Assembly (NCBI GenBank): GCA_963812015.1
Contig: CAWETI010000003.1
Coordinates: forward strand, 1,280,001-1,344,000
Origin: an uncultured delta proteobacterium
Lineage (GTDB): Bacteria > Desulfobacterota > Desulfobaccia > Desulfobaccales > 0-14-0-80-60-11
Length of the DNA: 64,000 bases
Direction of reading: 5' to 3'
Positions 9,386 to 62,847 of this stretch are shown one piece after another (the stretch's first letter is position 1; each line of letters begins with the position of its first letter). The notes under the pieces are model-generated. The model made no database searches and had not been told where the DNA came from. It worked only from the letters and a program-made list of their open reading frames with translations. A program made the position numbers and the translations under genes.

Positions 9386-9614
9386 TGCTGCCGATTCTCT
9401 TGGGGCCGCCACCCCGGTGAGGTCAAGCGGTTTGCTTTTTGGGAAAAATCTTAGTATGAAATTCACGTGACAGGTCAGCGCGCCAGGCGAGGCGTCCTTG
9501 CCCATTTGGCCTCAGATAGCCGGTGACTGGTGATGCGCAGCAGATTCGTGGGTTCGGTCCACCCAAAGCATTATTAACCTTATTTATTAGCAGATAATCA
9601 GGAGAAATGAAAGT

Positions 9615-10448: not shown

Positions 10449-10513
10449 GCCGGGGGCTGTCACTGCGTTTCAGGTATTGCAGCCGGCTAGTTCGGGGCAG
10501 GTGAAGGGCAGGC

Positions 10514-11602: not shown

Positions 11603-12804
11603 CTCAGGTCCAGGACCACCTTGAGGCTCTGGTGGCGGCGCTTGTCGAAGGCCGCCTGGAAGGCCCGGCGGTAATCGGCCAGCGGGAAGAGGTGGGAAAC
11701 CAGCCCCTGGGAGGGGTAATCCCCCCGGGCCAGCAATTCCACGGCCTTGGGATAGGTCCGGACGGTCTGGCCCTGACAGACGCCGTAGGCGTAGGTGGAG
11801 GAGCCGGTGAGCTTGAGCTCCCTAAACCACAGGCTGGAGATATCCACCGGGCCCAAGGCCCCGGCGGTCCCCACCAGGACGTAGGTCCCCCGGCCCCTCA
11901 GGGTCAGGAGCCCCTCTTGCAAGGAGGTCTTGGACCCGACACAGTCGAAGAACAGGTCGGCGCCGCCCTCCAGGTTGCCGCCCCCCAGGGTGGTGAGTAC
12001 CAGGCGGGCCCCCACGGCGTCTCCCAGCAGGGTCCGGCCGGGGTTCGACATGACCACGCTGGCTCCCCCTTCAATGGCCAGTTCCGCCTGGAAGGGGTAC
12101 CGGGCCACCATCACCACCCGGGCGGCGGAGCCCAGGGCCCGGAGCAGACGAATCAGGTGCTGGCCGATGATGCCGGCGCCATAAATCACCACGGTGTGGC
12201 GGTCGTCCGGAAAGTGGTCCAGGACCGGTTGAAGGGCCGAGGCCAGGGAATCGGCGAGCACCGCCACCTCATCCGGGAGATTGTCCGGCACCCGCACCAG
12301 CCGGCTGGGATGGGCGGCCATCATCTCGGCCATGCCGCCCCCCACGCCCCGGGTGAGGCCCAGAATCACCCCGGGGGCCAACTCACCCTCCAGGAAATTT
12401 TCGCAGAGGTTATAGGCCCCTGCGGCGCAGTAACGGCACGGCGGCACCCCCCTGACTTCGCAGGGAAGGACCGGCTCCACCACCACCCGGTCCCCCGGCC
12501 GCCATTCCGACCCCGAGGGGGCTTCCGCCACTTCGGCCACTACCTCGTGGCCCAAGACCGCCGGCAGGGAGGCGTAGGGTTCCAGCAAAAAGGATTCGGC
12601 GCCCTTGAGCAGCCCCAGGTCGGAACCGCAGATGCCGCACAGGCGGGGGCGCAGTACCACCCAGGAAGGCCCGGGGGGGCTGAACTCCACTTCTTGCAAC
12701 CTGAGGGGCGCCACCCGGGCAAAGAAGGTCCGATGCCAGAAGCGGTTCAGGCCTTTGGCCAGTAAGTAGCGCCAGACCGAGCGATAATAAACCAGGGCTT
12801 TCAT
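11599..12804 (-). CDS. Zinc-dependent medium-chain dehydrogenase
   Basis: GICGSD, GHE, structural Zn cysteines C-x6-CxxC-x7-C, GAGIIG. Confidence 0.9.
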   Translation of the reverse strand: MKALVYYRSVWRYLLAKGLNRFWHRTFFARVAPLRLQEVEFSPPGPSWVVLRPRLCGICGSDLGLLKGAESFLLEPYASLPAVLGHEVVAEVAEAPSGSEWRPGDRVVVEPVLPCEVRGVPPCRYCAAGAYNLCENFLEGELAPGVILGLTRGVGGGMAEMMAAHPSRLVRVPDNLPDEVAVLADSLASALQPVLDHFPDDRHTVVIYGAGIIGQHLIRLLRALGSAARVVMVARYPFQAELAIEGGASVVMSNPGRTLLGDAVGARLVLTTLGGGNLEGGADLFFDCVGSKTSLQEGLLTLRGRGTYVLVGTAGALGPVDISSLWFRELKLTGSSTYAYGVCQGQTVRTYPKAVELLARGDYPSQGLVSHLFPLADYRRAFQAAFDKRRHQSLKVVLDLR

Positions 12805-13001
12805 GGGATTCGATTTATCGTGGGACAGGTTTCCTTTTTCGTGCTTCCCAGGACTCTGTCCCGGGAAGGGGAGCTTGTCAAGACCATTCTTTCTCCCGGG
12901 GGTTGGGGATTCAACCGCATTGGGGTATAATGGCTGATAAATTGGGACTCGTCAGGCCCCGCGGCGTTTATTATACCAAAATATCGAGGAACATAATTTT
13001 C

Positions 13002-14216
13002 ATGGGAACCAGGAGCAGGATCGCGCTGGGAGTGGTGCTTAAAAACTTCCGGCGCCTGGCGAAACATCCCTGGATCGGCACCAAGCTGGCGACCCTCCAG
13101 GGTGAAAAATGGCTCTTCAACCTGCTCTATCCCCGGGCCCACACCGGGGAGGCCCGGAAAATCCGCCAATTGAGCTTCCGCATCACCGACCTCTGTAATC
13201 TCCGCTGCCACACCTGCGGCCAGTGGGGCGACCAGGGATTTCTTCACGGCCAGAATTTACGGAACTTGAAACGGAACGAAGTCTCTCTGGATCGCTACCT
13301 GGAAGTCTTGCGGGATCTGACCCAGCACGGCCACCACCCCTTTGTGTATCTCTGGGGCGGCGAACCTATGCTCTACGAGGGCTCCCTGGAGTTGATCGAG
13401 GCGGCCACCGCCCTGGGGCTGCCCACCTCCATCGCCACCAACGGCACCCGGATTGCCGCCGCCGCCGAGCGGCTGGTCCGGGCCCCGATGTTTCTGCTGC
13501 AGCTTTCCATCGACGGCCCTGATGCCGCCCTGCACAACCAGGCGCGGCCGGGGGTGGGGGGGGCCGACAACTTCGCCGATATTCAGGCCGCCCTGGCCGC
13601 GGTGGGCGAGGCCAGGCGGGCCCACCGCGGCACCCTCCCCCTGATTGCCTCCCTCACCACCATTTCCCAGGCCAATTTCCGGCACCTGGTGGACATCTAC
13701 GAGGCCTTTCGGGACAAGGTGGACCTGTTTGTCTTTTACCTGTCCTGGTGGATCGACGAAGAGCGGTGCGAGGCCCACGAAGCTGACTTTAGCCGCCGCT
13801 TCGGGTTTACGCCGGTGCGCCCCCGGGGCTGGGTGGGCGGATGGAAGCCGGATGACTACCGGGAGCTGAACCGCCAGCTCGAGGCGGTGCTGGACCGGTC
13901 CCGGCCGGGGCCGGCGCCGCCGGTCACTGTGATCCCCTCCATTACCGGGGAGGACAACCTGCGCGCCTATTACACCGACCACGGGAACTACTTCGGCTTT
14001 CAACAGTGCATCTCCATCTTCCAGGCCGTGGAAGTCAACAGCAACGGCGACCTCTCTCCCTGCCGGGACTACCATGACTATGTGGTAGGGAACATCAAAG
14101 AAGCCACCATCACCGAGCTTTGGAACTCGCCGGCTTACCGGCGGTTCCGCCGCAGCCTGAGCACCGAGGGGTTGATGCCCGTGTGCTCGCGCTGCTGTGG
14201 TTTGATGGGGTATTGA
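13002..14216 (+). CDS. Radical SAM protein with C-terminal SPASM/twitch domain
   Basis: CNLRCHTC (CxxxCxxC), GGEP, SIDG, C...GDLSPC...VGNI...ELWN...C.RCCG; ATG 13002 preceded by GAGGA. Confidence 0.93.
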   Translation: MGTRSRIALGVVLKNFRRLAKHPWIGTKLATLQGEKWLFNLLYPRAHTGEARKIRQLSFRITDLCNLRCHTCGQWGDQGFLHGQNLRNLKRNEVSLDRYLEVLRDLTQHGHHPFVYLWGGEPMLYEGSLELIEAATALGLPTSIATNGTRIAAAAERLVRAPMFLLQLSIDGPDAALHNQARPGVGGADNFADIQAALAAVGEARRAHRGTLPLIASLTTISQANFRHLVDIYEAFRDKVDLFVFYLSWWIDEERCEAHEADFSRRFGFTPVRPRGWVGGWKPDDYRELNRQLEAVLDRSRPGPAPPVTVIPSITGEDNLRAYYTDHGNYFGFQQCISIFQAVEVNSNGDLSPCRDYHDYVVGNIKEATITELWNSPAYRRFRRSLSTEGLMPVCSRCCGLMGY

Positions 14217-14217
14217 G

Positions 14218-15471
14218 ATGCAGAGAACTTGTGGGGGAGGGGTGCAGGAGCGGGACAGCCGTTGCCTCCCCCCCAACCTCCCTTCTCCACACCCGTTCAG
14301 GGGGTTGGGAGGGGAGTTTGAGGGGAGGGCGGGGGACTTGACTTACGAAAAATCCCCCGGCCCTCTCCTCAAAACCATTCCTGCCTCCTCAGCCCCGGTG
14401 CGCCTGGTAGTGCTCCTGCAAGATTTAAAGTTCGGGGGCACCCAGCGCCAGGCCCTGGAGTTGGCCCGGCGCCTTGATCCCACCCGGTTTCAGGTGGAGG
14501 TCTGGCTGCTGGCGGCGGGGGAGGAGATGGCCCCTGGGGCACGGCGTCACGGCATCCCTTTGATTTGGCTGGGCCGGCAGGAACGGGTGGGGCCGATGGC
14601 CTTGGCCCGGTTAGGACGGCGGCTTGCCCATCAGCCCGTCGACGTGCTCATGCCCCTCACCGTGGTACCCAATATCTGGGGCCGGGTGCTGGGCCGCCTG
14701 GCCCGGGTGCCGGTGATTGTGGGCAACTGCCGGGGCGGCGGGGCTCCCCGGCGCCAACACGAACGCTTACTCTGGCCTCTGGCCCACCATATCCTGTGCA
14801 ACAGCCAGGTCTTAAAAGCCGTCTTAACCGACCGCTGCGGGGTCCCGGAACGCCGCATCACGGTGATCCCCAACGGGGTGGACTCGGATTATTTTCAGCC
14901 TGCCGCCGAGCCTGGCGCGGGGCCGCCCCGGGTATTGTCTCTGGCCCGAATGGTGCCGGATAAAGACCACGACATCCTGATCGAGGCCTTTCGCCTGACG
15001 GTCCGGGAGCACCCCGAGGCGGAACTGTGGCTGGTGGGGGATGGCCCCCGCCTGGAGGAGGTCCGGGACCTGTCCCGGCGGCTCCTGCCTCCGGACCGGG
15101 TCAGATTCCTACCCCCCCGGGAGGACCTGCGGCCCTTGTTGCACCAGGCCAGCCTCCTGGTGCTCAGTTCTCGAACCGAAGCCCTGCCCAACGTGGTCCT
15201 GGAGGCCATGGCGGCGGGCCTGCCGGTGGTGGCCACCCGGGTGGGCGGAGTTCCCGAACTGGTGAGGCCGGGGCTGACTGGCTGGCTGGTGGCCCCGGGG
15301 GACGCCCCAGGGCTGGCCGCGGCCCTGGGCCAGGTGCTGGGAGACCCCGCCACCCGGCAAGCCATGGGTCGGGCCGGACGACTGCGGGCGCGGCAAGAAT
15401 TTTCCCTGGATACCATGACGCAACGGTACGAGGCGGTGCTGCTCAATCTCCTCAAGCAGGTGAGACGCTAA
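14218..15471 (+). CDS. GT4 glycosyltransferase
   Basis: GGTQRQ, VIPNGVD, KDH, EALPNVVLEAMAAGLPVVATRVGG; the conserved domain begins ~14395 and the first ~60 codons overlie a palindromic repeat. Confidence 0.9.
   Translation: MQRTCGGGVQERDSRCLPPNLPSPHPFRGLGGEFEGRAGDLTYEKSPGPLLKTIPASSAPVRLVVLLQDLKFGGTQRQALELARRLDPTRFQVEVWLLAAGEEMAPGARRHGIPLIWLGRQERVGPMALARLGRRLAHQPVDVLMPLTVVPNIWGRVLGRLARVPVIVGNCRGGGAPRRQHERLLWPLAHHILCNSQVLKAVLTDRCGVPERRITVIPNGVDSDYFQPAAEPGAGPPRVLSLARMVPDKDHDILIEAFRLTVREHPEAELWLVGDGPRLEEVRDLSRRLLPPDRVRFLPPREDLRPLLHQASLLVLSSRTEALPNVVLEAMAAGLPVVATRVGGVPELVRPGLTGWLVAPGDAPGLAAALGQVLGDPATRQAMGRAGRLRARQEFSLDTMTQRYEAVLLNLLKQVRR
14301..14374. repeat. G-rich palindromic repeat, family A
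   Basis: TTTGAGGGGAGGGCGGGGGA...TCCCCCGGCCCTCTCCTCAAA; related copies near 35597, 36310 and 62861. Confidence 0.75.
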
Positions 15472-15473
15472 AG

Positions 15474-16712
15474 ATGGCCGGACCCCGGGTGGCCTACATT
15501 CTTCTCTGGTTTCCCGAACCCACCCAGACGTTTATTCTGGATGAGGTCAATAGCCTGGTGCGCCTGGGCCTGGACGTCAAGGTTTACACCCTCTTCGGGC
15601 CGCGGCCGGCCTCCCGCCTGGAGGGGATGGCCGAGGTATTAGCGCCGGTGCATCATTTGGGGACGGGCGCCCTTAGACTCCTGAGCCGGGATCTGCTGCG
15701 TCCCGGCCTCAACTGGGGCCCAGAGGCGGCGGCGTTTTGTCGGCAGGTGGCGATGCGCCGCTGGCGCAACCTGGAGACCTGGGGCGAGGCCCTGTGGGCC
15801 GGGTTTGCCGGTGTGCACCTGGCTGGGGTGATGACTGCCGACGGGATCGACCATATTCACGCCCCTTGGGCCAACGGCCCGGCCACCGCCGCCTGGGTGG
15901 CCTCGACCCTCAGCCGCATCCCCTTCAGCTTCAGCGGCCGGGCCCACGACCTCTATCCCTCCGACGGGGCCCTGGGGGAAAAAATGGCGGCCGCCAGCTT
16001 TGTCCGCACCAACACCCAAATCAACCAGCGCTACCTGGCGGAACTGTTTCCCCACCTGGCCGGGAAGGTGGTGAACATTTACAACGGCGTTTCCCTGGCG
16101 GCGCCGGCCGCCCCCCGGCCCCCGGCCCGGCCGCCCTTTCACCTGCTGGCCCTGGGCCGCCTGGTGCCCAAAAAGGGATTTACGGTCCTCATCAGGGGCT
16201 GCCGCTATCTGACCGCCCAGGGGGTGGATTTTCGCCTCACCCTGGCCGGCGACGGCCCGGAGCGGGGGATAATTCGAGACCTCATCCGCCAGCAAGGGCT
16301 GGCGGACCGGGTGAGCCTGCCCGGGGCGGTGCCTCACCGGGAGGTGGCCCGACTCATGGCCCAGGCCGACCTCCTGGTCACGCCCAGTCTGATTGCGCCC
16401 TCCGGAGACCGGGACGGCATTCCCAATGTGATCATGGAGGCCTTGTTCTTTGAGGTGCCGGTGGTGGCTTCCGCGGTCTCCGGCATCCCCGAGGTCATCC
16501 GGGAAGGCGATACCGGCTGGCTGACCGAACCCAATGATCCCGAAGCCCTGGCCCGGACCGTAGCCGCGGCCCTGGCCGACCCCCATGAGGCCCGGCGCCG
16601 GGCTGAGAAGGGCCGGGCCCTGGTGGCCCGGGAGTTCGACTCCCTGAGAAACTACGCGAAATTGAAGGGGCTGTTCGAGGGGGCTATTACTCGGCTGGAA
16701 AAGTTAGCGTAA
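15474..16712 (+). CDS. GT4 glycosyltransferase (WcaL-like)
   Basis: FPEPTQTFILDEV, HIHAPW, GRLVPKKG, GDRDGIPNVIMEA; ATG 15474 lies 2 nt after the upstream stop. Confidence 0.9.
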   Translation: MAGPRVAYILLWFPEPTQTFILDEVNSLVRLGLDVKVYTLFGPRPASRLEGMAEVLAPVHHLGTGALRLLSRDLLRPGLNWGPEAAAFCRQVAMRRWRNLETWGEALWAGFAGVHLAGVMTADGIDHIHAPWANGPATAAWVASTLSRIPFSFSGRAHDLYPSDGALGEKMAAASFVRTNTQINQRYLAELFPHLAGKVVNIYNGVSLAAPAAPRPPARPPFHLLALGRLVPKKGFTVLIRGCRYLTAQGVDFRLTLAGDGPERGIIRDLIRQQGLADRVSLPGAVPHREVARLMAQADLLVTPSLIAPSGDRDGIPNVIMEALFFEVPVVASAVSGIPEVIREGDTGWLTEPNDPEALARTVAAALADPHEARRRAEKGRALVAREFDSLRNYAKLKGLFEGAITRLEKLA

Positions 16713-16903
16713 ATGATTATCCATACCTCAAAGATGAGCGGTGCATAAAGTCCCCCTTTGAAAACGGGGGATTTCTTCTCGTCCCCAAGCTTGGCTTGGC
16801 AACCAGAAGAAAGAACCGCCGGGGGTGGCTGTTCCCCATGTGCATGGCTGATCGTCACCCGCCGGGGTCCTCGGCCCTGAGCCCGTGCCACCCGTAACTC
16901 CCC

Positions 16904-17956
16904 TCAATAATCCAACTTCTTTTCCCGGATAAACTGGTCGACCAGAGCGAAGATCTCCTGGTTGCCGCAGAAATTGCCTCCCTGGATATGGGCGCGGCAG
17001 TCCTTCAGGTGCGCTTCGAAGGTGGGGATGATTTCGGGGGGAGGGCGGAATCCGGTGAAGTAGCGGCCGTATCCCAGTCGGTCGATATAGAAGGCGTTGA
17101 GAAACTGTTCAAAGGCGTTTTTGATGGGGAAGGAGATCACCGGCTTGCCGTAGTACAGGGCCTCGGAGGCCAGGGTATGGCTGCCGCCGCAGACCACGTA
17201 GCGGCAGGACGACAGATCGTCCAGAAAGCCGGTCTCGGAATTTTTCTTGAAGTGAAGGTTGCCTTCGGTGCGCGCCTCGTTGAAGCCGTAAACCATCACC
17301 GGTGAGGGGATGGCGCTCAGGAAGGGGAAAAAGCGCTTGAAGGTGGTATAGCCCTGGTAGGCCACTACGTGCTCGCCGATGGTGGCCTGGCGTTCCCGCA
17401 CGCTTTCCCTCAGGAGCGGCGGCAGTATTTTGGCCCGGGCCCCGGGCTTCACCGGGGGCCGGAAAAAGGAGATCACCAGAAAATCCGTGGCCCGGCTGAA
17501 CAGGGAGGACACGGCATAGCTGGTGGAGAGATAACTGGGATACTGGGTCCAGGGGACCGGGTGGCGGCAGCAGGTGATGACGTGTTGATGGTCGATGGAA
17601 AGGCAGGGGACGCCGGTCCGGCGGGACGCCCGGGGCACGAAAAACTCATAATCACTCATGGTCACGTCGGGTTGGAACTGGTCCATGAGGGACAGAATCT
17701 GGCGGAGGTGGCGGCGGGATTGGCCCCTGACCTTGAAGCTGGCGATCAGGGTGGCGAGGACGTCCACGCGGTGGCCCCGGACCACCGTGGGGGGATTGGG
17801 GCATTCCACCACCGGAAATTCCTGTCCCAGGATGGCGGCCCCGGTCTGGTGGCTGACAAAGAGAAACTCGTGCTCGGCAAAATGCCGGGCAATGGTCAGG
17901 GCCCGGACGGCGTGGCCGTGTCCGATCCCATGGACCCCATAGAGAATTCTGGCCAT
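16904..17956 (-). CDS. MJ1255/VC2487-like (GT28-related) glycosyltransferase
   Basis: ILYGVHGIGHGHAVRA, SDYEF, SIDHQH, GS.TLASEALYYGKP, FEQ.LNA. Confidence 0.85.
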   Translation of the reverse strand: MARILYGVHGIGHGHAVRALTIARHFAEHEFLFVSHQTGAAILGQEFPVVECPNPPTVVRGHRVDVLATLIASFKVRGQSRRHLRQILSLMDQFQPDVTMSDYEFFVPRASRRTGVPCLSIDHQHVITCCRHPVPWTQYPSYLSTSYAVSSLFSRATDFLVISFFRPPVKPGARAKILPPLLRESVRERQATIGEHVVAYQGYTTFKRFFPFLSAIPSPVMVYGFNEARTEGNLHFKKNSETGFLDDLSSCRYVVCGGSHTLASEALYYGKPVISFPIKNAFEQFLNAFYIDRLGYGRYFTGFRPPPEIIPTFEAHLKDCRAHIQGGNFCGNQEIFALVDQFIREKKLDY

Positions 17957-18028
17957 AGCGTTAGGTACCCCAGGAAAGGGCCGGGGTCAGCCGGGGTAAG
18001 GTTTTTTTGACGAGGGCGGGGGCGAAAT

Positions 18029-19240
18029 TCATGGAGTGTGCCTTTGGGGTCCCGGTTTGAGGATAATTTCCCGGACCCGGCCGCCCCAGGTCACCCGGTA
18101 GGAGATGCCGCGCCAGGAGAGGGTGTTGGTGCGCCAGGTCTTGAGGTAGCACCAGGCGGCCATGAAGATATTGGCATAAAAGGCCAGGAGCCAGGGCCCC
18201 AGCGGCGCCTTTTGGGGCACCAGGGTGCGGCACCAGGCTCCGATGGCGGTGAAAACCAGCAAAAATCCGAGACTGGCCAGGGCCAGGGGCGGGGCCGTCA
18301 GTCCCACCAGGCCCCCGAGAACGGCCAGCCCCGCCAGGAGAATGGGCCCGGCCAGCCCGATCACCGCCAGGGAGGCGGCCAGCCAGGAGAGGGGCAGGCA
18401 GTATTTCGCGTATAAGATCTGCCGGGTCAGCCAGGTGGACCAGCCGTCCAGGGTCTGTCCGGTAAGCTTGGTGCTCATGGTCGCGGCGGCCACGGGCACC
18501 ACCCGGATGCCGAATCGCAAGAGGCGCCGCCCTAACGGCAAGTCGTCCAGCATGCTTGACCCCCAGACCCCTTCCACCCCGGATTCGCGGAAGACGGACC
18601 GGAGAATGGCGGTGGCGCCGCCCCAGGGCAGGATGACGCTGGGCAAGCTGTGGAGCAGGTGTATGGTCAGCACGGTCTGGAGCATCCCCAGGGTGGCCAC
18701 CCGGGCATCGCCGGGAATGATACGGTGGAAGCCGGTGGTCAGGACCGCGGCGCCGGTGGCCAGGGGGTGGATGAGCTCCTGGAGAAAGTTGGGCGGGGCG
18801 TCATGGGTGCTGTCGCAAAAAACCAGGATTTCCACCGAGTCGTCCAGGACCCCGAGGCCGGCCAGAATGTTGTGGTTTTTCTGTGAGCAGCCGGAGGCCG
18901 GGCCGCTGACGATGTGGCGGCTTTGCGGGTGGCGGGACAAAAGACTCTGTACCAGGGAAGTGGCAGGGTCTTCCAGGTCCCGGGTGACCAGGACGGTTTC
19001 ATAGTTGGGATAAGGCTGGGTGAGGAGCGACGTGAGCGCGGCCCGCATTTCCGGCGTGTTCCCGGTCAGAGGCACAATGAGGGCGACCCGGGGATAGGCC
19101 GGCCAGGGGCCGGACGCCGGGGATGGTCCTCCGGGGGCCGCCCCGGGGAAACTCCGGCGCAGATGGTGGCGGCTGTGGGCCAGCAGCACCATCAGGACCA
19201 GGAGCTCCAGGACCATGGAGGCCAAAAGCAGGGCCGTCAA
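18029..19240 (-). CDS. GT21/GT2 membrane glycosyltransferase, ceramide glucosyltransferase/HpnI-like
   Basis: N-terminal TM, PRVALIVPLTG, SQK.HN, VFCDS, WGG, DD..L, W.TRQ, C-terminal WRGISY; TTG start. Confidence 0.75.
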   Translation of the reverse strand: MTALLLASMVLELLVLMVLLAHSRHHLRRSFPGAAPGGPSPASGPWPAYPRVALIVPLTGNTPEMRAALTSLLTQPYPNYETVLVTRDLEDPATSLVQSLLSRHPQSRHIVSGPASGCSQKNHNILAGLGVLDDSVEILVFCDSTHDAPPNFLQELIHPLATGAAVLTTGFHRIIPGDARVATLGMLQTVLTIHLLHSLPSVILPWGGATAILRSVFRESGVEGVWGSSMLDDLPLGRRLLRFGIRVVPVAAATMSTKLTGQTLDGWSTWLTRQILYAKYCLPLSWLAASLAVIGLAGPILLAGLAVLGGLVGLTAPPLALASLGFLLVFTAIGAWCRTLVPQKAPLGPWLLAFYANIFMAAWCYLKTWRTNTLSWRGISYRVTWGGRVREIILKPGPQRHTP

Positions 19241-19408
19241 TCAATCCCTCCCGCAGTCTTTCTCTAAAATAAAGGCCGGGTGCCTCGACCCAGCCGCATA
19301 ATCCGTAAGCTGAAAATCACTTACCAGATACCTTTCGGTCCTGTCAAGGGAAATTCCCCCGCCGGGGGCTCACCCGATGACCGGATTATTCTGCAAATCT
19401 CATGAGTT

Positions 19409-20845
19409 TCAGAGGGTGCCCCGCCTCCGGAGCCACCACCGCCCCGCCAGGTACAGGGTGGGGGCCAGGGCCAGGGCCTCGGTCACTTCCCGGGGCAGAC
19501 GGCCGTTTCCCACCAGGTAAAGCAGAGCGCCCACCAGGACGGCGAGGCCCAACTGGAGCAGCGGGCGCCGGAGTATGAGGCCCAGCCGCCGCTGGCAGAA
19601 AGAGACGGTCAGAAGGGCCACCCCGCCCTTAGTGAACACCATGGCCAGGGCCGCCCCCAACAAGGGAATCCGGGGAATGGCCAGGCTGCACCAGAGCAGA
19701 TTGAAGGCCAGGCCGCTCAAGTAAAAGACCAGGAGCAACCGGTGGAGACGCATGCTGATCATCAGAAACCCCGCCAGATTGTGCATGAAGGCAAAGGCCA
19801 CGGTCACCACCAGGACCTTTTGCAGCCAGATGGCGTCGGGGTACTTGGGGCCGTAAACCAGGGTGATGATGCGGTCGCTTTCGATGAACAGCACAAACAT
19901 GACCGCCAGGGCCGCGGCCAGGAGCCAACGGGCGGTATTTTGGGCCAGGAGGGCGACCCTGGCGCGGTCCACCTCCCAAAGCTGGACAAAGATCGGAAAC
20001 ATGATGGCTTGGAGGAGGAGGTTGGAGACCAGCCCGGAGATGCCGTCCACGGTCTGCCAGGTGACGCTATATTGGGCTACCCCGTGGGCTCCGGCGTACT
20101 TCTGGAGGAAAAAGAGGTTGGCCTTGTTGTAGAGAATGGCCGAGACTTCGATGAGGGCAAACACCAGCCCCAGGTGCAGGGTGGAACCCAGCCTGCCCAT
20201 GGAGGGCCACTTGAACCGGAAGCGGTCATGGGAGCGGACCAGGATAAAGCTGCCTGCCAGATTGACCAGGGCCTCAATGAGCTTAAAAGCGGCCAACACC
20301 AGGGGAGGGGCTCCCAAGGCCAAGGCGATGAGGGCATAGCTGAAGGCCAGGCCGGCCCCCAGGGCTTTGACCGTGCTCTGGAGATCCTGGCGGCCCCGAA
20401 CCTGCAGGGCCACAAAAAAAGTGTTGGACAGGGCATCCAGCCCCATCCCGGCGCTGAGCATAAACATGACGTGTTTGAGTGCCGGGGGGTAGCCCTGCCA
20501 CTCCATGAAGCCCACCACCCCCATGAGGGCCAAAATCAGCAAGGCCCCCTTGAGGAAGGACACCTGGGTCAAGGCGGCATCCGAGTCGCGGTCTTTTTGG
20601 CCCAGGAGGGACACCAGGGGCAGGTTGAGGCCAAATTCCGCCACCAGCAGGAGGATGCTGCCCAATCCCATGGCCAGCATAAACTCCCCGTAGGTGGTGG
20701 AGCTGACCCGGGCCAGGTAGATGAAGAAAACGGCTTGCAAGGACTCCCGGACCCAACGGGCACTCAGGAGATAGGCAAAATTCTTGAGGATGCGGGGAGG
20801 GGCGGGCTCCCCCTGGACCGGCGGGTTATGGCGGCTATCGGGCAT
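19409..20845 (-). CDS. Wzx-type oligosaccharide flippase
   Basis: ILKNFAYL...YLAR..S..YG, EFGL, ~12-14 TM segments, LVYGPKY; start placed at ATG 20845. Confidence 0.85.
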   Translation of the reverse strand: MPDSRHNPPVQGEPAPPRILKNFAYLLSARWVRESLQAVFFIYLARVSSTTYGEFMLAMGLGSILLLVAEFGLNLPLVSLLGQKDRDSDAALTQVSFLKGALLILALMGVVGFMEWQGYPPALKHVMFMLSAGMGLDALSNTFFVALQVRGRQDLQSTVKALGAGLAFSYALIALALGAPPLVLAAFKLIEALVNLAGSFILVRSHDRFRFKWPSMGRLGSTLHLGLVFALIEVSAILYNKANLFFLQKYAGAHGVAQYSVTWQTVDGISGLVSNLLLQAIMFPIFVQLWEVDRARVALLAQNTARWLLAAALAVMFVLFIESDRIITLVYGPKYPDAIWLQKVLVVTVAFAFMHNLAGFLMISMRLHRLLLVFYLSGLAFNLLWCSLAIPRIPLLGAALAMVFTKGGVALLTVSFCQRRLGLILRRPLLQLGLAVLVGALLYLVGNGRLPREVTEALALAPTLYLAGRWWLRRRGTL

Positions 20846-21270
20846 AAAAGGATCGACGCTGGCCTTGAGGTGGTTTTTTCCAGACCCGGGGTTCCCGGTA
20901 AGGGGGCGTCCCGAAACTTTATATATCAAATATTCCCGCCGCGGGTGAGGAAAAGTCTTCTCTGGGGCCGAAATTCCCGTCTGGGCGCCTTGCTTCCCTG
21001 AGGAGGTTGGATACCCGCCCGGAGATGAGACGCAGGTTCGGGCCGCAAAAGTGATTGCCATGCCCTCGGCGATACTTTATCATTTGAGCAGGCCAGGGCA
21101 GGTCGGCCCAGGGGGGTGACCGGCGGCGACGGTCCTGGGGGCTCTCTTATCGAGCCTGGCCTGGGGGCAATTTTGGCCATTGACCGGGATCAGCTCCCCG
21201 CCCCGGCGGCAGGCTTTCCGGAACTACTCGCCTCCCTGCAATGACCAAGTTTATCCTGGAATAGTCAATA

Positions 21271-22419
21271 ATGCCGGACGACGACCACGATACCGCCACC
21301 AACTGGTTCCAACGCAATCCCAAGAAAACCCTGGTGGTGGTCACCCTGGTTTTCATCCTAGCGATAGTCTACGCCTCGGAAAAATTTCTGGAATTCAACA
21401 ACCGGCGGCAGGGGATTTTCCTGGAGGCGGAAAGAAGGTATGTCCGGCTGAAAGAGTACCGCCCCGGGACCCGCCTGCGGCTGGCCTTTCCCCAAAATCA
21501 CCGGCCCTACACCGACAATGTCTTCACCAAGCAGTACCAGTTTGATATCGACCAAAATGGCTTTATCGTCCCTTCGAAGAAATATGACCGGCCCGATAAA
21601 GTCATCGTGTTCCTGGGCGGGTCCACCACCGAGTGCATGTTTGTGGACCCGGACCACCGGTTTCCTTACGTGGTGGGGAACATCCTGGAGCGGGAGACGG
21701 GAGCCAAGATCAATTCCTACAACGGCGGGATGTCAGGCAACAACACCCTGAACGCCATCGATATTCTGATCAACAAGGTGATCCCCCTGCACCCCCAGGT
21801 GGTGGTCTACATGGAGAACATCAACGACCTGAGCACCCTCCTGTACGCCGGGACCTACTGGAATGAGCGGACGGCCCGGTCGCCCCTGGAGACCCTGAAA
21901 AAGCGGCAACTGGCGGGCAAACTCCTGCAAGAAATTTTTATCCCCAACCTCAATGACGCCTATAGAAAGCTGAAGAAGTCCCTGGCCCGGGCAGAGGAGG
22001 ATGAATTTGCCGGGGCCAGGGGTAAAAAGCTCACCATTGACCAGGCCCGGTTAGTCCACGCCTTCGCCATGAATCTCCAGACCCTGGTCTGCATCTGCCA
22101 GGGGCATGAAATCGTGCCGGTGTTGATGACCCAGGCCAACCGGATCACGGACCACCCCGACCCGGTGGTGGCGGCCTATATCAACCGCGACGGCGGCGCC
22201 ACCGGCGTCAGCTACCAGCAATTCAAAGAGCTCTATGACGCCTTCAACGACACCATCCGGGAAGTGGGCCGGAAGAATCACGTCATGGTCATCGACCTGG
22301 CCCGGGAAGTCCCCCCCGACAAAAAATATCTGTATGATTTGGTCCACTTCAATGACGCCGGGTCCCAACTGGCGGCCCGGATCATTGCGGCCAGGTTGAA
22401 GGGAATTCTGCCCCCGTGA
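21271..22419 (+). CDS. Membrane-anchored SGNH/GDSL-family protein
   Basis: N-terminal TM, GGSTT (block I), NGGMSG, NIND, YDLVH (DxxH). Confidence 0.85.
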   Translation: MPDDDHDTATNWFQRNPKKTLVVVTLVFILAIVYASEKFLEFNNRRQGIFLEAERRYVRLKEYRPGTRLRLAFPQNHRPYTDNVFTKQYQFDIDQNGFIVPSKKYDRPDKVIVFLGGSTTECMFVDPDHRFPYVVGNILERETGAKINSYNGGMSGNNTLNAIDILINKVIPLHPQVVVYMENINDLSTLLYAGTYWNERTARSPLETLKKRQLAGKLLQEIFIPNLNDAYRKLKKSLARAEEDEFAGARGKKLTIDQARLVHAFAMNLQTLVCICQGHEIVPVLMTQANRITDHPDPVVAAYINRDGGATGVSYQQFKELYDAFNDTIREVGRKNHVMVIDLAREVPPDKKYLYDLVHFNDAGSQLAARIIAARLKGILPP

Positions 22420-22465
22420 GGACCGGTCCTCCCCTCAATAATCTCTTCAATCCCGCCCGACACCA

Positions 22466-23101
22466 CTACCAAAGCCCCCCCGACCTCGCCACCTTTACCG
22501 CCAGGGTCAGGCCGTCGTGCTCGGGGGAGTGACGGGGCAAGAAGCTCAGCAGGTGGACGGCGCGCCAGGCCGGGTTCTCGAAGATTTCCCGGTTAAAATC
22601 CGCCGCCCCGGAGAACCCCACGTTGTCGGCCACCAGGAGGCCGCCGGCCCGCAGGAGGCGGCGGCAGTGGGACAGGGCCGGCAGGTAGGATTCCTTGTCG
22701 ATGTCCAGGAAGACCAGGTCAAAGGTCTCGGACATGCCGGCCATGAGGTTTAAGGCCTCCCCCACCCTGACCTCCACCACCTGGGCCAGGCCGGCCCGGC
22801 TCAAATTGGCCCGGGCCCTGCCGGCCATGGTCTCGTCGTATTCCAGGGAAATCACCCGGCCGTGGGTTGCCGCACAGGCCCGGCCCAGGAAGATGCCGGA
22901 ATACCCGGTGGCGGCGCCCAGCTCCAGGATACGGGCGGCCCCGGTGGCCGTGGCCAGGATGAAGAGGAGTTCCCCCACCACCGGGCCGACGATGGGGATG
23001 GACTCACGTTCAGCCTCTTCCTCCAGTTCCAGGAGCAAGGCATCGCCCGGGGGCGCCAGGCCCCGAAAATATCCTTCCAGATCAGGCATCATTTTACCCA
23101 T
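22466..23101 (-). CDS. SAM-dependent O-methyltransferase (Methyltransf_3/TrmR-like)
   Basis: IPIVGP..G.LL, LELGAATGYS, FDLVFLDIDK, GGLLVADN; SD GGAGGG before ATG 23101. Confidence 0.88.
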   Translation of the reverse strand: MGKMMPDLEGYFRGLAPPGDALLLELEEEAERESIPIVGPVVGELLFILATATGAARILELGAATGYSGIFLGRACAATHGRVISLEYDETMAGRARANLSRAGLAQVVEVRVGEALNLMAGMSETFDLVFLDIDKESYLPALSHCRRLLRAGGLLVADNVGFSGAADFNREIFENPAWRAVHLLSFLPRHSPEHDGLTLAVKVARSGGLW

Positions 23102-23292
23102 GGTCCCTCCGTCGATATCGGTATAGGAAGAGATTGCCTCGAAAAATTGTTGAGTTTCGAGTAATATTATGGCAGGAAAAAGGCGGCAGGGGAAGGGGAG
23201 GCTGGGGGGGATCATTAGAACAATGAGTAAGAAATATCCATATCGTTTAGAGACCTGATGAGGTTATTGGAGAGGCAAGGGTTTATAAATGG

Positions 23293-24417
23293 ATGGATAG
23301 ATTTTATAAGAAAGAGGGCATGGGGTTCATGCATCTTATTGATAATGGTAAATTAAAAAGAACGCCTAAGAAAGTTATTAAAATCTTAATTATTAATTTA
23401 ATAATTTTCTTGTTAATTGTAGTCGCAGTTGAAATGGTGATTAGAATTATATTTCCAAATATAAATGTATTGGGTAATAGCAAAAATCTTTTTCAATATA
23501 ATAAATATGGCAGTAGTTTTGGGTTAACTCCAAACAATCATGGATATTCTTACGGGGCTGAAGTTATTACGGACGCGAGAGGATTCCGGATCGACCCATC
23601 CTCGCAAATGTCCAGCGGAAAATATGTAATTTTAGTTTTAGGAGATTCGGTAAGTTTTGGCTTGGGGGTTGCGGCCCGTGATTCATTTCCATTAATGCTG
23701 CAAAAACATGTAAAGGATTGCCAAATTATCAATGGCTCAGTGATTGGTTATTCATCTGAAGATTATTATAATGTATTAAGTCATTGGATTAATTCTGGAT
23801 TAAAATTCGAAGGAGTAATAGTTAGTATTTGCCTAAATGATTTCTCTACTGAGTCTCAGGCTAATATAGAAAAACAATTTCAACTAGGATATTATAAGAG
23901 ATATCCGAATAGGGTAGTGCGGTTGATAAGATATATTTCAGATAACTATTTCAATTTCAATGATTTCTTGAAAGGAAATTCAAAAACCTATCTGTTGATA
24001 AAAAATATGATGCTTGACTAATCAAAAAACTACTTTTTAGCAGACACAACATATTATGATATGCCGGGGATAGAAAGTGTTATATCCGAAAATCTCAAAA
24101 AAATAAATGATCTTGCGGCCAGAAATGGCAAATGGATTGTGTTTTGTGTATTTCCATACGAATATCAATTACGTCAGAGCTCCTATAATAACCGTGAGAC
24201 TGCCAAGCCACAAATATTGATCAACGAGGTGGCCGAAAAAGATAAGTTGCCGGTGAAAGATTTATTGCCAGATATTTATAGAGCTCTCCAAAGATCCGGA
24301 TTAAGTTCAAAGGATATCTATCTTTTTGGTGACCCGATGCATTTATCTCGGCTCGGTCACCAAATAGCTGCTCAGTGCTTATATGAGAAGATCATTACGT
24401 CTGGTCTGGCAGATTAA
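23293..24417 (+). pseudogene. AT-rich SGNH/GDSL protein split by an in-frame TAA
   Basis: ORFs 23293-24021 (LGDSVSFG, NGSVIGY, CLND) and 24061-24417 (DPMHLS..GH) are in the same frame, separated only by TAA at 24019-24021. Confidence 0.75.
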
Positions 24418-24742
24418 GGTTATCCGGACTTCCAGATCGGGGATCAGTTTGCTCATGGTCCCTCTTTCCGGGACCGCCAGGGGAAGAGAATGCCTCGAAC
24501 ATTTGTTTGGGTTGCGGGTAAGATTATGCCAGGAAATCGGAGGAGGAAAAGGTCGGGCGGCCTGCCTCCTTGCCCGGTTTTTCGACCATCTGCCGGTACC
24601 CTGGCGTTTGGGAAGTGCAAAATTAAACCAGCCTCACCCCGGACCCAGTCCAGGGGCTGCCTCTGAGTCTCCCGCAAAAATTGCCCAAAAAACCATATTC
24701 ATGATAAAATTATAAATTGAGATAAGGGTATAAAGGAGAAGT

Positions 24743-25162
24743 ATGGCGCCAGAAAAGCTGCAAGGCACCAGCCCCGTGGCCCGGTGGCTGACATCCACTC
24801 CGGAGCAAGCCAAAGATACGGGCATGGCCATGGTGTTGATCTGCCTCCTCCTGGGATATTGGGGCAAGTTTCCCAAGTTTCTGCCCGTGAGCCTCGTGCT
24901 GTTGCTCATCACCATGATCTGGCCCAAGGCCTTCCGGCCCCTGGCCGGGCTCTGGTTCGGCCTCTCCCATCTCCTGAGCAGCGTCGTCTCCCGGGTTATT
25001 TTGTCGATCTTGTTCTTCCTGGTGGTCACCCCCATCGGCCTTATCCGCCGATTGACCGGGGCCGATGCCCTGCAATTGAAGAAATGGAAGCAGGGCCAGG
25101 ACTCCGTGTTCACGATGCGGGAGGGCCCCGTTCAGGGGAAGGATATGCTGAACCCTTATTGA
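24743..25162 (+). CDS. SxtJ-family membrane protein
   Basis: W.GLS..L..VVSRVIL.ILFFLVVTPIGLIRRL.G.D.L, ends in NPY; upstream of SxtK-like peptide and carbamoyltransferase. Confidence 0.8.
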   Translation: MAPEKLQGTSPVARWLTSTPEQAKDTGMAMVLICLLLGYWGKFPKFLPVSLVLLLITMIWPKAFRPLAGLWFGLSHLLSSVVSRVILSILFFLVVTPIGLIRRLTGADALQLKKWKQGQDSVFTMREGPVQGKDMLNPY

Positions 25163-25171
25163 AAGTAAGCT

Positions 25172-25333
25172 TAGGGGCGGGTTTAAAACCCACCCCTACA
25201 TGGGGTTTTCCATCGACCTTATTAATATCCAAGGAGTTTTTTCCACTCGTTCCCAAGTTGCACTTGGGAACGACAATAATCCCAAACTAAGCTTGGCTGG
25301 TAAAGGCGTTCCCAACCCCGGCTTGGGAACAAG
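25172..25333. repeat. Cluster of palindromic repeats (AGGGGCG...CCCCTAC and CGTTCCCAAG...CTTGGGAACG families)
   Basis: AGGGGCGGGTTTAAAACCCACCCCTAC; CGTTCCCAAGTTGCACTTGGGAACG; related copies near 16778 and 34220. Confidence 0.7.
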
Positions 25334-25376
25334 GCTATAAAGTTACAGCCACGCAAGTGACGCAAGGAGTTGTGCT

Positions 25377-25526
25377 ATGGATTTTGTCAAGGATTTGTGG
25401 GGGTTCCTCAAGGTAAGGAAAAAATTCTGGTTGTTGCCCATCATCTTGACGCTCTTGTTTTTCGGCGCCTTGATGATCTTTGCCAGCGGTTCGGCCATCG
25501 CGCCCTTCATCTACACCATCTTTTAA
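25377..25526 (+). CDS. SxtK/DUF5989-family 49-aa membrane peptide
   Basis: Below the ORF-track cutoff; MDFVKDLWGFLKVRKKFWLLPIILTLLFFGALMIFASGSAIAPFIYTIF*; SD AAGGAG. Confidence 0.88.
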   Translation: MDFVKDLWGFLKVRKKFWLLPIILTLLFFGALMIFASGSAIAPFIYTIF

Positions 25527-25538
25527 GGGGATAACCGC

Positions 25539-27401
25539 GTGCCCGAAGCGATTCTCGGTATTTCCGCCTTTTATCACGACAGCGCCGCCGCCTTGCTGGT
25601 GGACGGCCAGATCGTCGCCGCGGCCCAGGAGGAGCGTTTCACCCGCAAGAAGCACGACCCCGCCTTCCCGGCCAATGCCCTGGCCTATGTCATGGGGGAG
25701 TCGGGTCTGGCCCTGGGAGATTTGGCTGCCGTGGCGTTCTATGACAAGCCCTACCTCAAGTTTGAGCGCCTGTTGGAGACCTACCACGGCTTTGCCCCCC
25801 GGGGCCTCCGGAGCTTTCTCGCGGCCATGCCGGTGTGGATCAAAGAAAAGCTGCTGATGCGCAGCCTGCTCAAGGAGGAACTGGCCAAGGTGGGAGCCGG
25901 CAGTCCCCCGGTCCTCTTTCCCGAGCACCACCTGTCCCACGCGGCCTCGGCGTTCTATCCGTCGCCCTTTACCGAGGCCGCCATCCTCACGCTGGACGGG
26001 GTGGGGGAGTGGGCCACCTCCACCATCGGCTTCGGCCGGGGCCACGAGCTCACCATTTTGCGGGAGCTCCATTTTCCCCACTCCCTGGGCCTGCTCTATT
26101 CGGCCTTCACCTACTACTGCGGCTTCAAGGTCAACAGCGGCGAATACAAGCTTATGGGGCTGGCGCCTTACGGCAATCCCGACTCCGACCAGACCAAAGG
26201 CTGGAAGACCCTGATATTGGACGAGCTGGTGGACCTCAGGGAAGACGGCTCCCTGCTCCTGAACATGGATTATTTCGACTTCGCCACCGGCCTCACCATG
26301 TGCCGGAACGACAAGTGGGAATCCCTGTTCGGGGTGCCGCGCCGGGCCCGGGAAACCTTCCTGGACCAGAGGTACATGGACCTATCCCTGGCCATCCAGT
26401 TGGCCACGGAAGAGATTGTGCTGCGCCTGGCGGAGACCGCCAAAAAGCTCACCGGGGCCGACAACCTGGTGATGGCCGGCGGGGTGGCCTTGAACTGTGT
26501 GGCCAACGGCAAACTGATCCGCCGGGGCACCTTCAAAGACGTCTGGATCCAGCCGGCGGCGGGGGATGCCGGCGGCGCCCTGGGCGCGGCCCTGGCGGCC
26601 TGGCACATCTGGCAGGGCCAGGGGCGCCAGGTCCCCAATTCCCAATTGGACAACATGCAGGGCTCCTACCTGGGACCGGAGTTTACGGATAACGACAGCA
26701 TCAGGTTGGCCCGGCGGCACCATGCCCCTTATCAGCACTTTGCCGATTTCGACGACCTGAGCCGGGAAGTGGCCCAACTCCTGGCCCAGGGACAGGTGGT
26801 GGGGTGGTTCCAAGGGCGGATGGAGTGGGGGCCCCGGGCCCTGGGCAACCGGTCCATCTTGGGGGACCCCCGGCACCCGGAGATGCAAAAACGCCTGAAC
26901 TTGAAAATCAAGTATCGGGAGGGCTTTAGGCCCTTTGCGCCATCGGTGTTGTCTGAGGAGGCGGCCACCTACTTTGAGTTGGACCGGCCGTCCCCCTACA
27001 TGCTGCTGGTAGCCCCGGTCAGAGAGGAGCGGCGCAACCCCCTGCCCCCCGGCTATGAGAACCTGGAGCTCTTTGACCGCCTCTACCACCTGCGGTCCGA
27101 CGTCCCGGCCATCACCCACGTGGACTATTCTGCCCGCATCCAGACGGTGCATAAAGAGACCAACGCACGCTACTGGCGGCTGATCCAGGCCTTCAAGGAG
27201 CACACCGGCTGCGGCCTCATCGTCAACACCAGCTTCAACGTCCGGGGGGAGCCCATCGTCTGCACCCCGGAAGACGCCTACCAGTGCTTCATGCGCACCG
27301 AAATGGATTACCTGGTGGTGGGCGACTACCTGTTCGACAAGCAAAAACAGCCTGCCTGGCAGGAAGCGAAAGACTGGCGGACGGAGTTCGAACTGGATTA
27401 A
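25539..27401 (+). CDS. O-carbamoyltransferase (NodU/CmcH/SxtI family)
   Basis: GISAFYHDSAAAL, AAQEERF, HHLSHAASAF, DGVGE, EYKLMGLAPYG, GGVALNC, E.GPRALGNRS, NTSFN. Confidence 0.96.
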   Translation: MPEAILGISAFYHDSAAALLVDGQIVAAAQEERFTRKKHDPAFPANALAYVMGESGLALGDLAAVAFYDKPYLKFERLLETYHGFAPRGLRSFLAAMPVWIKEKLLMRSLLKEELAKVGAGSPPVLFPEHHLSHAASAFYPSPFTEAAILTLDGVGEWATSTIGFGRGHELTILRELHFPHSLGLLYSAFTYYCGFKVNSGEYKLMGLAPYGNPDSDQTKGWKTLILDELVDLREDGSLLLNMDYFDFATGLTMCRNDKWESLFGVPRRARETFLDQRYMDLSLAIQLATEEIVLRLAETAKKLTGADNLVMAGGVALNCVANGKLIRRGTFKDVWIQPAAGDAGGALGAALAAWHIWQGQGRQVPNSQLDNMQGSYLGPEFTDNDSIRLARRHHAPYQHFADFDDLSREVAQLLAQGQVVGWFQGRMEWGPRALGNRSILGDPRHPEMQKRLNLKIKYREGFRPFAPSVLSEEAATYFELDRPSPYMLLVAPVREERRNPLPPGYENLELFDRLYHLRSDVPAITHVDYSARIQTVHKETNARYWRLIQAFKEHTGCGLIVNTSFNVRGEPIVCTPEDAYQCFMRTEMDYLVVGDYLFDKQKQPAWQEAKDWRTEFELD

Positions 27402-61728: not shown

Positions 61729-62847
61729 ATGATCAAAATTAACACCTTATTGAAAAACTTGGGGCTTCTCCTGTTGGGCGGCCTGGTGGCGCTGGTGGTG
61801 CTGGAACTGCTGCTCAGGGTCTACAATCCCCTGGAGATTCGCTTCAAGCCCGACCGGATCGTTTTGCCGGTCAACAAGCGCTACGTCCTCGACAACACCG
61901 GCCAGTTCACTAAGCTGCCCCCCAGGACCCTGCATACCAAAAATGGACTGGGTTTTCGGGGCGATCCGCCCCCTCCCAACTTCCGGGATTGGCTGACCAT
62001 CGTCACCATCGGCGGCAGCACCACGGAGTGCTTCTATCTCTCCGACGGCCATACCTGGCCTGACCTCCTGGGGCGGAAACTATCGCAGGCTTTTACCAAA
62101 GTATGGATCAACAACGCCGGCCTGGATGGCGCCACCACCTACCGCCACCTCATCCTGATGGAGGACTATGTCGTCAAGGTGCGCCCCAAGGTGGTGTTAT
62201 TCCTGGTGGGCATCAACGACGTGGGGGCGCCCAACCTTGACGAAGCCGAAAAGCACCGGGGGCATTATTTGAGAAATATGTGGCGCGCCCTCCTGTATCG
62301 GAGCGAGGTCTATGCCCTGGAGCAAAATATCTATCACTACTTTATAGCCCAGAGTCGGGGGTTGCGGCACACGGAGATTGATTTAAGGAAAGTCGAGGTT
62401 CTAGCGGATCTGCCGGAATCAGCGGCGCAGAAGACCTTACAAGATTACCGGGCCAACTCCCTGCCCTTTTTTGCCGCCAGGCTAAAGAAGCTCGTCAAAA
62501 TTTCCCGGGACCACGGGATTGAGCCGGTCATGATCACCCAGCCGACCCTCTACGGGCCGGGCGTCGATCCGGTCACCGGGGTTAACCTGGCGACCATCAA
62601 GCTGGGAGAGAACCTCAACGGCGGGCTTATGTTCCAGGTTGTGGATCTTTACAACGGGGTGACCCGGCAGGTGGCCGGCCAAGAGAAGGTCCTCCTCATC
62701 GACCTGGCCCGGGAACTGCCCCGGAACTCCGCCTATTACTACGACTACCTCCACTACACCGAGGCCGGGGCGAGGGCAGTGGCCGGGATTGTCGACTCGC
62801 GGCTCAAGCCCTTTCTGGCGGCCCGCTATCCCGCTTTCAAGAAATAG
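61729..62847 (+). CDS. Membrane-anchored SGNH/GDSL-family protein
   Basis: GFRG, GGSTTEC, NAGLDG, GIND, YDYLH; paralogue of 21271-22419. Confidence 0.85.
   Translation: MIKINTLLKNLGLLLLGGLVALVVLELLLRVYNPLEIRFKPDRIVLPVNKRYVLDNTGQFTKLPPRTLHTKNGLGFRGDPPPPNFRDWLTIVTIGGSTTECFYLSDGHTWPDLLGRKLSQAFTKVWINNAGLDGATTYRHLILMEDYVVKVRPKVVLFLVGINDVGAPNLDEAEKHRGHYLRNMWRALLYRSEVYALEQNIYHYFIAQSRGLRHTEIDLRKVEVLADLPESAAQKTLQDYRANSLPFFAARLKKLVKISRDHGIEPVMITQPTLYGPGVDPVTGVNLATIKLGENLNGGLMFQVVDLYNGVTRQVAGQEKVLLIDLARELPRNSAYYYDYLHYTEAGARAVAGIVDSRLKPFLAARYPAFKK

Follow-up and report, generated by a model that had tools for sequence, protein, structure and literature searches.

What brings a soluble carbamoyltransferase (SxtI), a small membrane protein (SxtJ), a 49-amino-acid (aa) membrane peptide (DUF5989, SxtK-type) and membrane-anchored SGNH proteins together in one locus? 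The question is raised by a 64,000-nucleotide stretch of contig CAWETI010000003.1 from an uncultured delta proteobacterium (the window, meaning the whole stretch of DNA analysed), in which these genes form a compact module. An earlier note on this DNA had interpreted them as a carbamoyl relay running from cytoplasmic SxtI through the peptide Tyr to a periplasmic SGNH protein, and our analysis partly supports this interpretation. The module is real and widespread across many bacterial groups, and it is the SxtI/J/K(/L) gene set occurring outside toxin clusters. With somewhat better than even confidence, we propose that SxtI would carbamoylate the peptide Tyr and that the membrane-anchored SGNHs would pass the group to outer targets, probably envelope glycans. 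The wider claim is more tentative and falls just short of an even chance: the module could represent a new class of trans-membrane acyl relay in bacteria, the third after MBOAT-SGNH and AT3-SGNH, made of an SxtJ-docked soluble carbamoyltransferase, a DltX-like microprotein and up to ~20 dispersed SGNH transferases per genome, which would imply a widespread, overlooked O-carbamoylation at the outer face and a carbamoyl-transferring role for SxtL. Our literature searches, whose coverage of subscription journals was small, found no paper proposing such a relay and none on DUF5989. If true, the proposal would assign a role to DUF5989 and SxtJ, both families of unknown function, show that a tyrosine acyl shuttle can carry carbamoyl and needs no MBOAT, account for a large number of anchored SGNH genes that are now orphans, and reopen the assignment of SxtL as a decarbamoylase.

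Conservation of the module, its tyrosine tail and its SGNH neighbours

We analysed 140 loci, comprising the window, 59 same-phylum regions and 80 cross-phylum loci. The same-phylum set came from 60 regions taken from 78 matches, mostly for their long flanks; one region, which duplicated a cross-phylum locus, was removed, and its cross-phylum copy does not enter the per-set counts (60 and 79). The tail of the peptide is its most constrained part. W18, P21, A42, P43, Y46 and F49 are invariant in all 89 peptides from loci with complete I, J and K genes, without a single Tyr-to-Phe swap, and thus the terminal Tyr and Phe, on whose conservation in DUF5989 the relay depends, are preserved throughout. 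A YxxF-stop ends 59/60 same-phylum peptides, whose loci were found by the Pfam model, and the exception is a frameshifted gene. The same tail is present in 79/79 cross-phylum loci, a count that is biased because the tail served partly as the search pattern. Among cyanobacteria the tail Tyr was found in 20/20 loci and an SGNH gene within 3 kb in 17/20, mostly right behind the peptide (profile trained on the phylum of the window); both counts lean to strong hits because only 20 of the 34 genomes above the cut-off were sampled, the other 14 including the weakest peptide matches. In the host genome only two stop-to-stop open reading frames (ORFs) end in F[IVL]YxxF, the DUF5989 peptide and an MBOAT, and therefore the motif is not a matter of chance.

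The peptides have on average 4.5 Lys/Arg residues ahead of the membrane helix and 0.06 behind it, which predicts an N-in/C-out topology with the tail on the outer face. A cytoplasmic C-terminus would have been at odds with the relay of the earlier note; the positive-inside rule places it outside. The median identity of the peptide is 61%, and DUF5989 scores above the Pfam cut-off in 69/301 genomes sampled from the host phylum and in 34/301 from a cyanobacterial class, with further records in Pelagibacteraceae, Sinorhizobium, Nitrospira, Bacteroidota and Acidobacteria. No match to the peptide was found in phage sequences, and its profile gave no meaningful match to PDB sequences. Longer DUF5989 "fusions" in a protein collection were mostly single-contig records resembling gene-caller read-throughs and were not used. 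Tandem duplicated peptides occur in two loci (L044:9661-10164 and L058:6436-6852), in which the second copies end APFLYPLF and PFVYPFV. In a further locus (L184:11012-11194), a weak DUF5989-like ORF lies just upstream of a divergent SxtI-like gene that is devoid of the insertion at residues 495-522 described below; the pair is possibly a distant sub-type of the module.

The three core genes travel together, I and J both lying within 3 kb of the peptide in 47/60 same-phylum and 69/79 cross-phylum loci and in several gene orders. SxtI matches the structures of TobZ, GdmN and decarbamoylnovobiocin carbamoyltransferase in the PDB over its full length (residues 10-602), and its homology to the stand-alone O-carbamoyltransferases TobZ/NodU/GdmN extends over both domains (Kae1-like and YrdC-like). 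In 89 SxtI sequences, G431-P432-R433 and L435-G436 (the GPRALG motif) as well as H130, H134, D153 and D343 are invariant, and we take the latter four to be metal ligands. Module-linked SxtI proteins have a median identity of 59% across phyla and share a partly amphipathic segment (67-106) and an insertion (495-522), whereas same-phylum control carbamoyltransferases carry neither the insertion nor the conserved segment. SxtJ is far more variable (median identity 26%), with an invariant P97, a near-invariant W71, Ser/Thr at position 121 and a terminal aromatic residue. Natural fusions read from genome DNA, one J-K (L008) and one I-J (L056), are single cases, and both fit a J protein with cytoplasmic ends. 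In a model of the J-K fusion, J is predicted to form two membrane helices and a 44-residue helix; a fold search of this model, in which the K part rested on 3 alignment rows, returned helical-hairpin matches alone (best Z 7.7), and an Atlas search returned SxtJ clusters only. The recurrent neighbours of the module among the 140 loci are NAD epimerases (22), GT4 glycosyltransferases (16; a cluster named through its window members), DegT (11) and GT2 (11). A small cyanobacterial genome (L264) has two full I-J-K sets arranged in tandem and separated by SGNH genes, and in Trichodesmium (L110; G301:C1:2546408-2565502) J and K are followed by a ~9-gene SGNH array, with no sxtI match within 10 kb upstream.

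We then estimated how often the triad occurs with SGNH genes. A held-out profile trained on other phyla detected an SGNH gene within 3 kb in 34/60 same-phylum loci. Carbamoyltransferases outside the SxtI clade served as controls: at E<=1e-6, none of 37 such loci has an SGNH gene at this distance. Full 3-kb flanks were available for 30 of them, and two short ORFs gave scores at looser limits. In contrast to module SxtI, these 37 same-phylum stand-alone enzymes have no J, K or SGNH neighbour; three further control loci turned out to be SxtI-like, and each lies beside a J, K-like or SGNH gene. The co-occurrence that the earlier note had proposed to score is thus strong and specific against control carbamoyltransferases, and in 9/140 loci the SGNH gene is placed between the core genes. 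At the level of whole genomes, with a limit (E<=1e-20) picked after seeing the data, the SGNH family is present in 33/33 genomes with both peptide and MBOAT, 34/36 with the peptide alone, 6/41 with an MBOAT alone and 9/191 with neither; these counts include related genomes, which are not independent, and many fragmented ones. With the limit of the search itself (1e-8) the figures are 68/69 peptide-positive vs 56/232 peptide-negative genomes. The profile drew on 28 of the peptide-positive genomes, and 39/41 of the others still score. An MBOAT was detected in 33/69 peptide-positive genomes and not detected in 36/69, and it lies within the fetched flanks of just 2/140 module loci.

The SGNH proteins themselves are divergent (median identity 18%) with a constant catalytic core. 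SGNH1, the intact SGNH of the module in the window, has Ser118 and an Asp356-x-x-His359 pair; S118 and H359 are invariant in 73/73 family members, and an N-terminal hydrophobic anchor is present in 71/73. A one-residue gap before the catalytic His, the D-x-H type known from AlgJ/AlgX, is found in 54/73, and both AlgX and AlgJ match the family profile (E ~1e-12). The AlphaFold2 model of SGNH1 has a mean predicted local distance difference test score (pLDDT) of 87 and a helix at 17-46. In a FastTree phylogeny, SGNH1 falls in a fully supported clade with 4 SGNHs flanking or inside modules elsewhere and 4 paralogs of the host genome. Long branches and open forks are frequent in the tree and the family is not one clade, so that the interleaving of module-adjacent and MBOAT-adjacent SGNHs in it is only suggestive. 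One pair (L083 with L187) had looked like module-MBOAT mixing and is explained by an MBOAT present in L083. At E<=1e-20 the host genome has 20 family ORFs, against a single module and a single MBOAT.

Known systems resembling the module

MBOAT-SGNH shuttles are the closest functional parallel. Among 40 same-phylum MBOAT loci, taken from 103 matches listed, 39 tails end F[IL]YxxF, and 18 of these have a Pro just before, as in the peptide; the 40th lies near a contig end. The tail Tyr was shown to carry the acetyl group in PatA and is reported to do the same in DltX, and MBOAT pathways other than Dlt are described as having no DltX-like microprotein (PMC12148441, available in part). DltB-DltX-DltD resembles the module in having a free single-pass microprotein, whose C-terminal FxYxxF tail lies outside, and an SGNH-fold partner (PMC12148441, same portion). 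The module differs from it in having neither MBOAT nor carrier protein, its donor being a soluble TobZ-family carbamoyltransferase with SxtJ, and in its mostly diderm hosts and many SGNH partners. PatA-PatB and the AlgI-type O-acetyltransferases have the same tail, often with Pro ahead, and an overlapping SGNH family. In the module, however, a separate peptide bears the tail, carbamoyl would replace acetyl as the group transferred, there is no membrane enzyme bearing a catalytic His, and the block II Gly of the SGNHs is canonical. We infer that the module works like Dlt and Pat but is not a member of that class, because the defining MBOAT is absent. Since the held-out profile detects an SGNH at 68-170 bits in 10/40 MBOAT loci (module loci, 32-204), the SGNH family also sits beside tailed MBOATs, which weakens the notion of a private SGNH family and supports that of SGNHs serving FxYxxF tails.

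The gene set itself has been met with in saxitoxin clusters, in which the accessions of sxtI, J, K and L are consecutive, I, J and K are said to act "in conjunction" with no mechanism given in the text available, and SxtL is annotated as a GDSL lipase (PMC2684587, PMC2679770, PMC3037375, PMC5132012 and bioRxiv 10.64898/2026.06.11.731795, each available in part; hereafter the saxitoxin papers). The earlier note overlooked this GDSL/SGNH gene, listed directly after sxtK, as well as the ~20 dispersed paralogs. The likeness covers the O-carbamoyltransferase, the SxtJ family, a small ORF and a GDSL/SGNH gene, and many of the cyanobacterial loci examined show the order I-J-K-SGNH. We presume that DUF5989 is SxtK from gene order and length (165 bp), not from alignment to a named protein; the SxtK/SxtL equivalence was likewise drawn from gene order, size and annotation. 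A scan of the window revealed no other saxitoxin genes, the flanks being glycosyltransferases, a flippase and NAD synthase, and no genome-wide search for sxtA/sxtG was made. The ORF lists of 5 cyanobacterial module loci held nothing recognisable as an sxt cluster. A reading of SxtACT as an AT3 membrane acyltransferase was unsupported, as the portion of the paper available likens it to a CoA-dependent plant acetyltransferase.

The crocagin cluster offers another resemblance: its CgnD is the nearest solved structure to SGNH1 (Z 20.5, 244 residues, root-mean-square deviation 3.6), and a carbamoyltransferase is also shared. CgnD is reported to be a slow leader peptidase (PMC10070186, PMC10885120, available in part), and neither SxtJ nor DUF5989 is mentioned in the accessible parts of these papers, which include 4/5 supplements of PMC10070186.

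A counterpart is found in S. meliloti 1021, where SM_b20469-SM_b20472 (L265, NC_003078.1:482210-486412) encode a divergent SGNH, J, K and I, respectively. SM_b20472 scores 1039 bits on the SxtI profile and is labelled arcB2, an ornithine carbamoyltransferase, in a transposon sequencing (Tn-seq) study, in which all four genes are non-essential in LB (PMC7268258, available in part). The relay is directly testable in this harmless model organism. The peptide is carried by 30 Sinorhizobium and 8 Ensifer plasmid records.

The proposed relay and its rivals

In the relay that we propose, cytoplasmic SxtI would form carbamoyl-adenylate from carbamoyl phosphate and ATP and transfer the group at its Kae1-like site. 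Carbamoyl-adenylate is the established route of the TobZ family; for SxtI it is family membership that our comparisons establish. The acceptor suggested by the motif is Tyr46 of the peptide, which would give a labile aryl carbamate. The uncharged tail past a G38-S39 hinge may then shift between an inner vestibule, possibly formed by SxtJ and the amphipathic SxtI segment 67-106, and the outer face; this is the weakest step. By analogy with DltD and PatB, the SGNH Ser would take the group and hand it to hydroxyls outside the inner membrane. I, J and K together would likely form a membrane complex. One conserved module is accompanied by many divergent SGNHs in the gene counts, and the latter may set target specificity by a division of labour. 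A conserved donor, a conserved peptide and very divergent, multiplied SGNHs are the pattern expected from a shared intermediate serving different end acceptors.

Several observations weigh against this scheme. No route across the membrane like the MBOAT tunnel is apparent, SxtJ being small and poorly conserved, with no conserved His in its family alignment, and carbamoyl-serine intermediates are usually slow to turn over. The profile comparison between the peptide and MBOAT tails falls from 93% probability to 29% without the last 8 columns, and therefore the similarity rests on the motif. The SGNH1 model is nearer to hydrolases (esterases Z 18-19) than to PatB (Z 15.2), and the block II Gly is canonical in 56/73 SGNHs, unlike in the transferase PatB. 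No SGNH lies within 3 kb in 26/60 and 43/79 loci, and most SGNH paralogs of the host adjoin housekeeping genes and not glycan genes (~6 of 17 scanned paralog regions have a glycan-related neighbour). The saxitoxin papers, in their available portions, propose SxtL as a carbamoyl-removing decarbamoylase, an assignment that is untested there. In nodule Tn-seq, only SM_b20472 among the module genes is assigned to symbiosis, from weak counts (59 hits vs 44.6 expected), and J, K and the SGNH gene are not (PMC7268258, same portion).

The published role of SxtL fits an explanation in which I-J-K would be a membrane-tethered carbamoyltransferase acting directly on an acceptor at the inner face. J and K would then be structural, the tail motif would serve binding, and the SGNHs would act at the outer face as decarbamoylases or editing esterases. 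Such an arrangement agrees with the hydrolase-like SGNH fold and its canonical block II Gly, needs no membrane crossing, and explains the co-occurrence equally well. The joint loss in Lyngbya wollei, in which sxtL is absent and sxtI truncated (saxitoxin papers), fits relay and decarbamoylase alike. We nevertheless consider direct action unlikely, though deserving of attention, as it leaves unexplained an invariant Tyr in a tail that, preceding Pro included, matches the shuttle tail of MBOATs, the pairing of the same SGNH family with tailed MBOATs, and one conserved enzyme alongside ~20 divergent SGNHs. It is distinctly improbable that the relay is real but its acceptors are mainly non-glycan (lipids, envelope proteins or exported small molecules, depending on the SGNH paralog). 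The scarcity of glycan neighbours around dispersed paralogs, the absence of annotated ones at the S. meliloti locus and the small-molecule target of the saxitoxin cluster would agree with this; the recurrent NAD epimerase, GT4, DegT and GT2 neighbours of the module and the flippase, glycosyltransferases and O-antigen ligase-like gene upstream in the window speak for glycans.

Two further explanations appear very improbable. The peptide could be a precursor whose tail is carbamoylated and then cleaved by a CgnD-like SGNH peptidase into a small modified peptide; CgnD, which SGNH1 resembles most in structure, is a slow leader peptidase, and its cluster also encodes a carbamoyltransferase and an Ile-Tyr-Trp core. 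However, the entire peptide is conserved across phyla with an invariable core, CgnJ is a methyltransferase and not SxtJ, and many SGNH paralogs for one identical substrate would be implausible. The SGNHs could instead be ordinary MBOAT partners or esterases sharing envelope islands with the triad, a view to which the occurrence of the family beside MBOATs, its lack of a single clade and the MBOATs of 33/69 peptide-positive genomes lend something. It was already disfavoured and we give it hardly any credence, as the family persists in nearly all peptide-positive genomes in which no MBOAT was detected (34/36), is absent from all 37 control loci, sits inside the triad in 9 loci, and the flanks of module loci rarely hold an MBOAT (2/140).

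Layout of the locus

The genes of the module and their neighbours in the window are as follows.

21271..22419, + strand: SGNH1, intact, with an N-terminal membrane anchor (PF13472, E 1e-13)
22466..23104, - strand: O-methyltransferase (PF01596), probably unrelated, as its cluster spans just 3/140 loci
23293..24417, + strand: SGNH2, low-GC, probably a recent acquisition and now a pseudogene (in-frame TAA at 24019-24021)
24743..25162, + strand: SxtJ-family membrane protein, proposed scaffold (PF19588, above cut-off)
25166..25340, no strand assigned: palindromic inverted repeats in the J-K intergenic region, not a component of the module
25377..25526, + strand: DUF5989 (SxtK-type) 49-aa membrane peptide ending APFIYTIF-stop (PF19451, E 4e-25)
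25539..27401, + strand: SxtI-type O-carbamoyltransferase of the TobZ/NodU family, 620 aa (PF02543 and PF16861)
61729..62847, + strand: third SGNH of the same family, candidate dispersed partner, with an N-terminal membrane helix (PF13472; family profile E 4e-46)

All parts named in the earlier note (SGNH, SxtJ-like protein, 49-aa peptide and carbamoyltransferase) are present in the window, although the triad it gave as I-J-K runs J-K-I and the peptide it called unannotated belongs to a Pfam family. The 49-aa ORF is preceded by an AAGGAG ribosome site and is the only DUF5989 gene in the genome. As for the SGNH genes placed upstream of the triad, SGNH1 is intact and SGNH2 is broken by the in-frame stop, and therefore one working SGNH remains there; the opposite-strand O-methyltransferase separates the two, and the third SGNH sits 34 kb downstream of the module. 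The claim that the window has no MBOAT holds, as a custom MBOAT profile gives no match in it. The sole MBOAT of the genome (C3:575963-577555) is ~730 kb from the module; it ends FIYFQF and its own SGNH follows (C3:575963-578631 region), which amounts to a canonical acyl relay in the same cell.

SGNH2 has a GC content of 34%, compared to 58-64% in SGNH1, J and I, and gave no tblastn match across 6 loci from relatives. A public contig, possibly of the source sample, has identical letters at the stop, and a contig of another run skips 23201-24566. SGNH2 is thus probably strain-specific, recently acquired and now a pseudogene, and its absence from the second contig suggests a site next to the module, bordered by the methyltransferase and sxtJ genes, at which SGNH genes are swapped. 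Public RNA runs gave contigs only for relatives.

A divergent block upstream of the module encodes a flippase and glycosyltransferases, with an O-antigen ligase-like gene located farther up. The whole region (8138-21061) encodes O-antigen ligase-like, GT2, zinc dehydrogenase, radical SAM/SPASM, two GT4, MJ1255-like and HpnI-like glycosyltransferase, and flippase proteins, and this glycan-modifying block is a candidate source of the acceptor. Two more carbamoyltransferase-domain genes are present in the genome (C3:1246417-1247466 and C2:646937-647968), the former with no J, K or SGNH nearby. A 315-aa low-GC ORF with no Pfam match at E<=1e-6 (39212-40159, - strand) lies in a high-GC region. The repeats at 25166-25340 have 39 blastn matches in the genome and are REP-like (repetitive extragenic palindromic).

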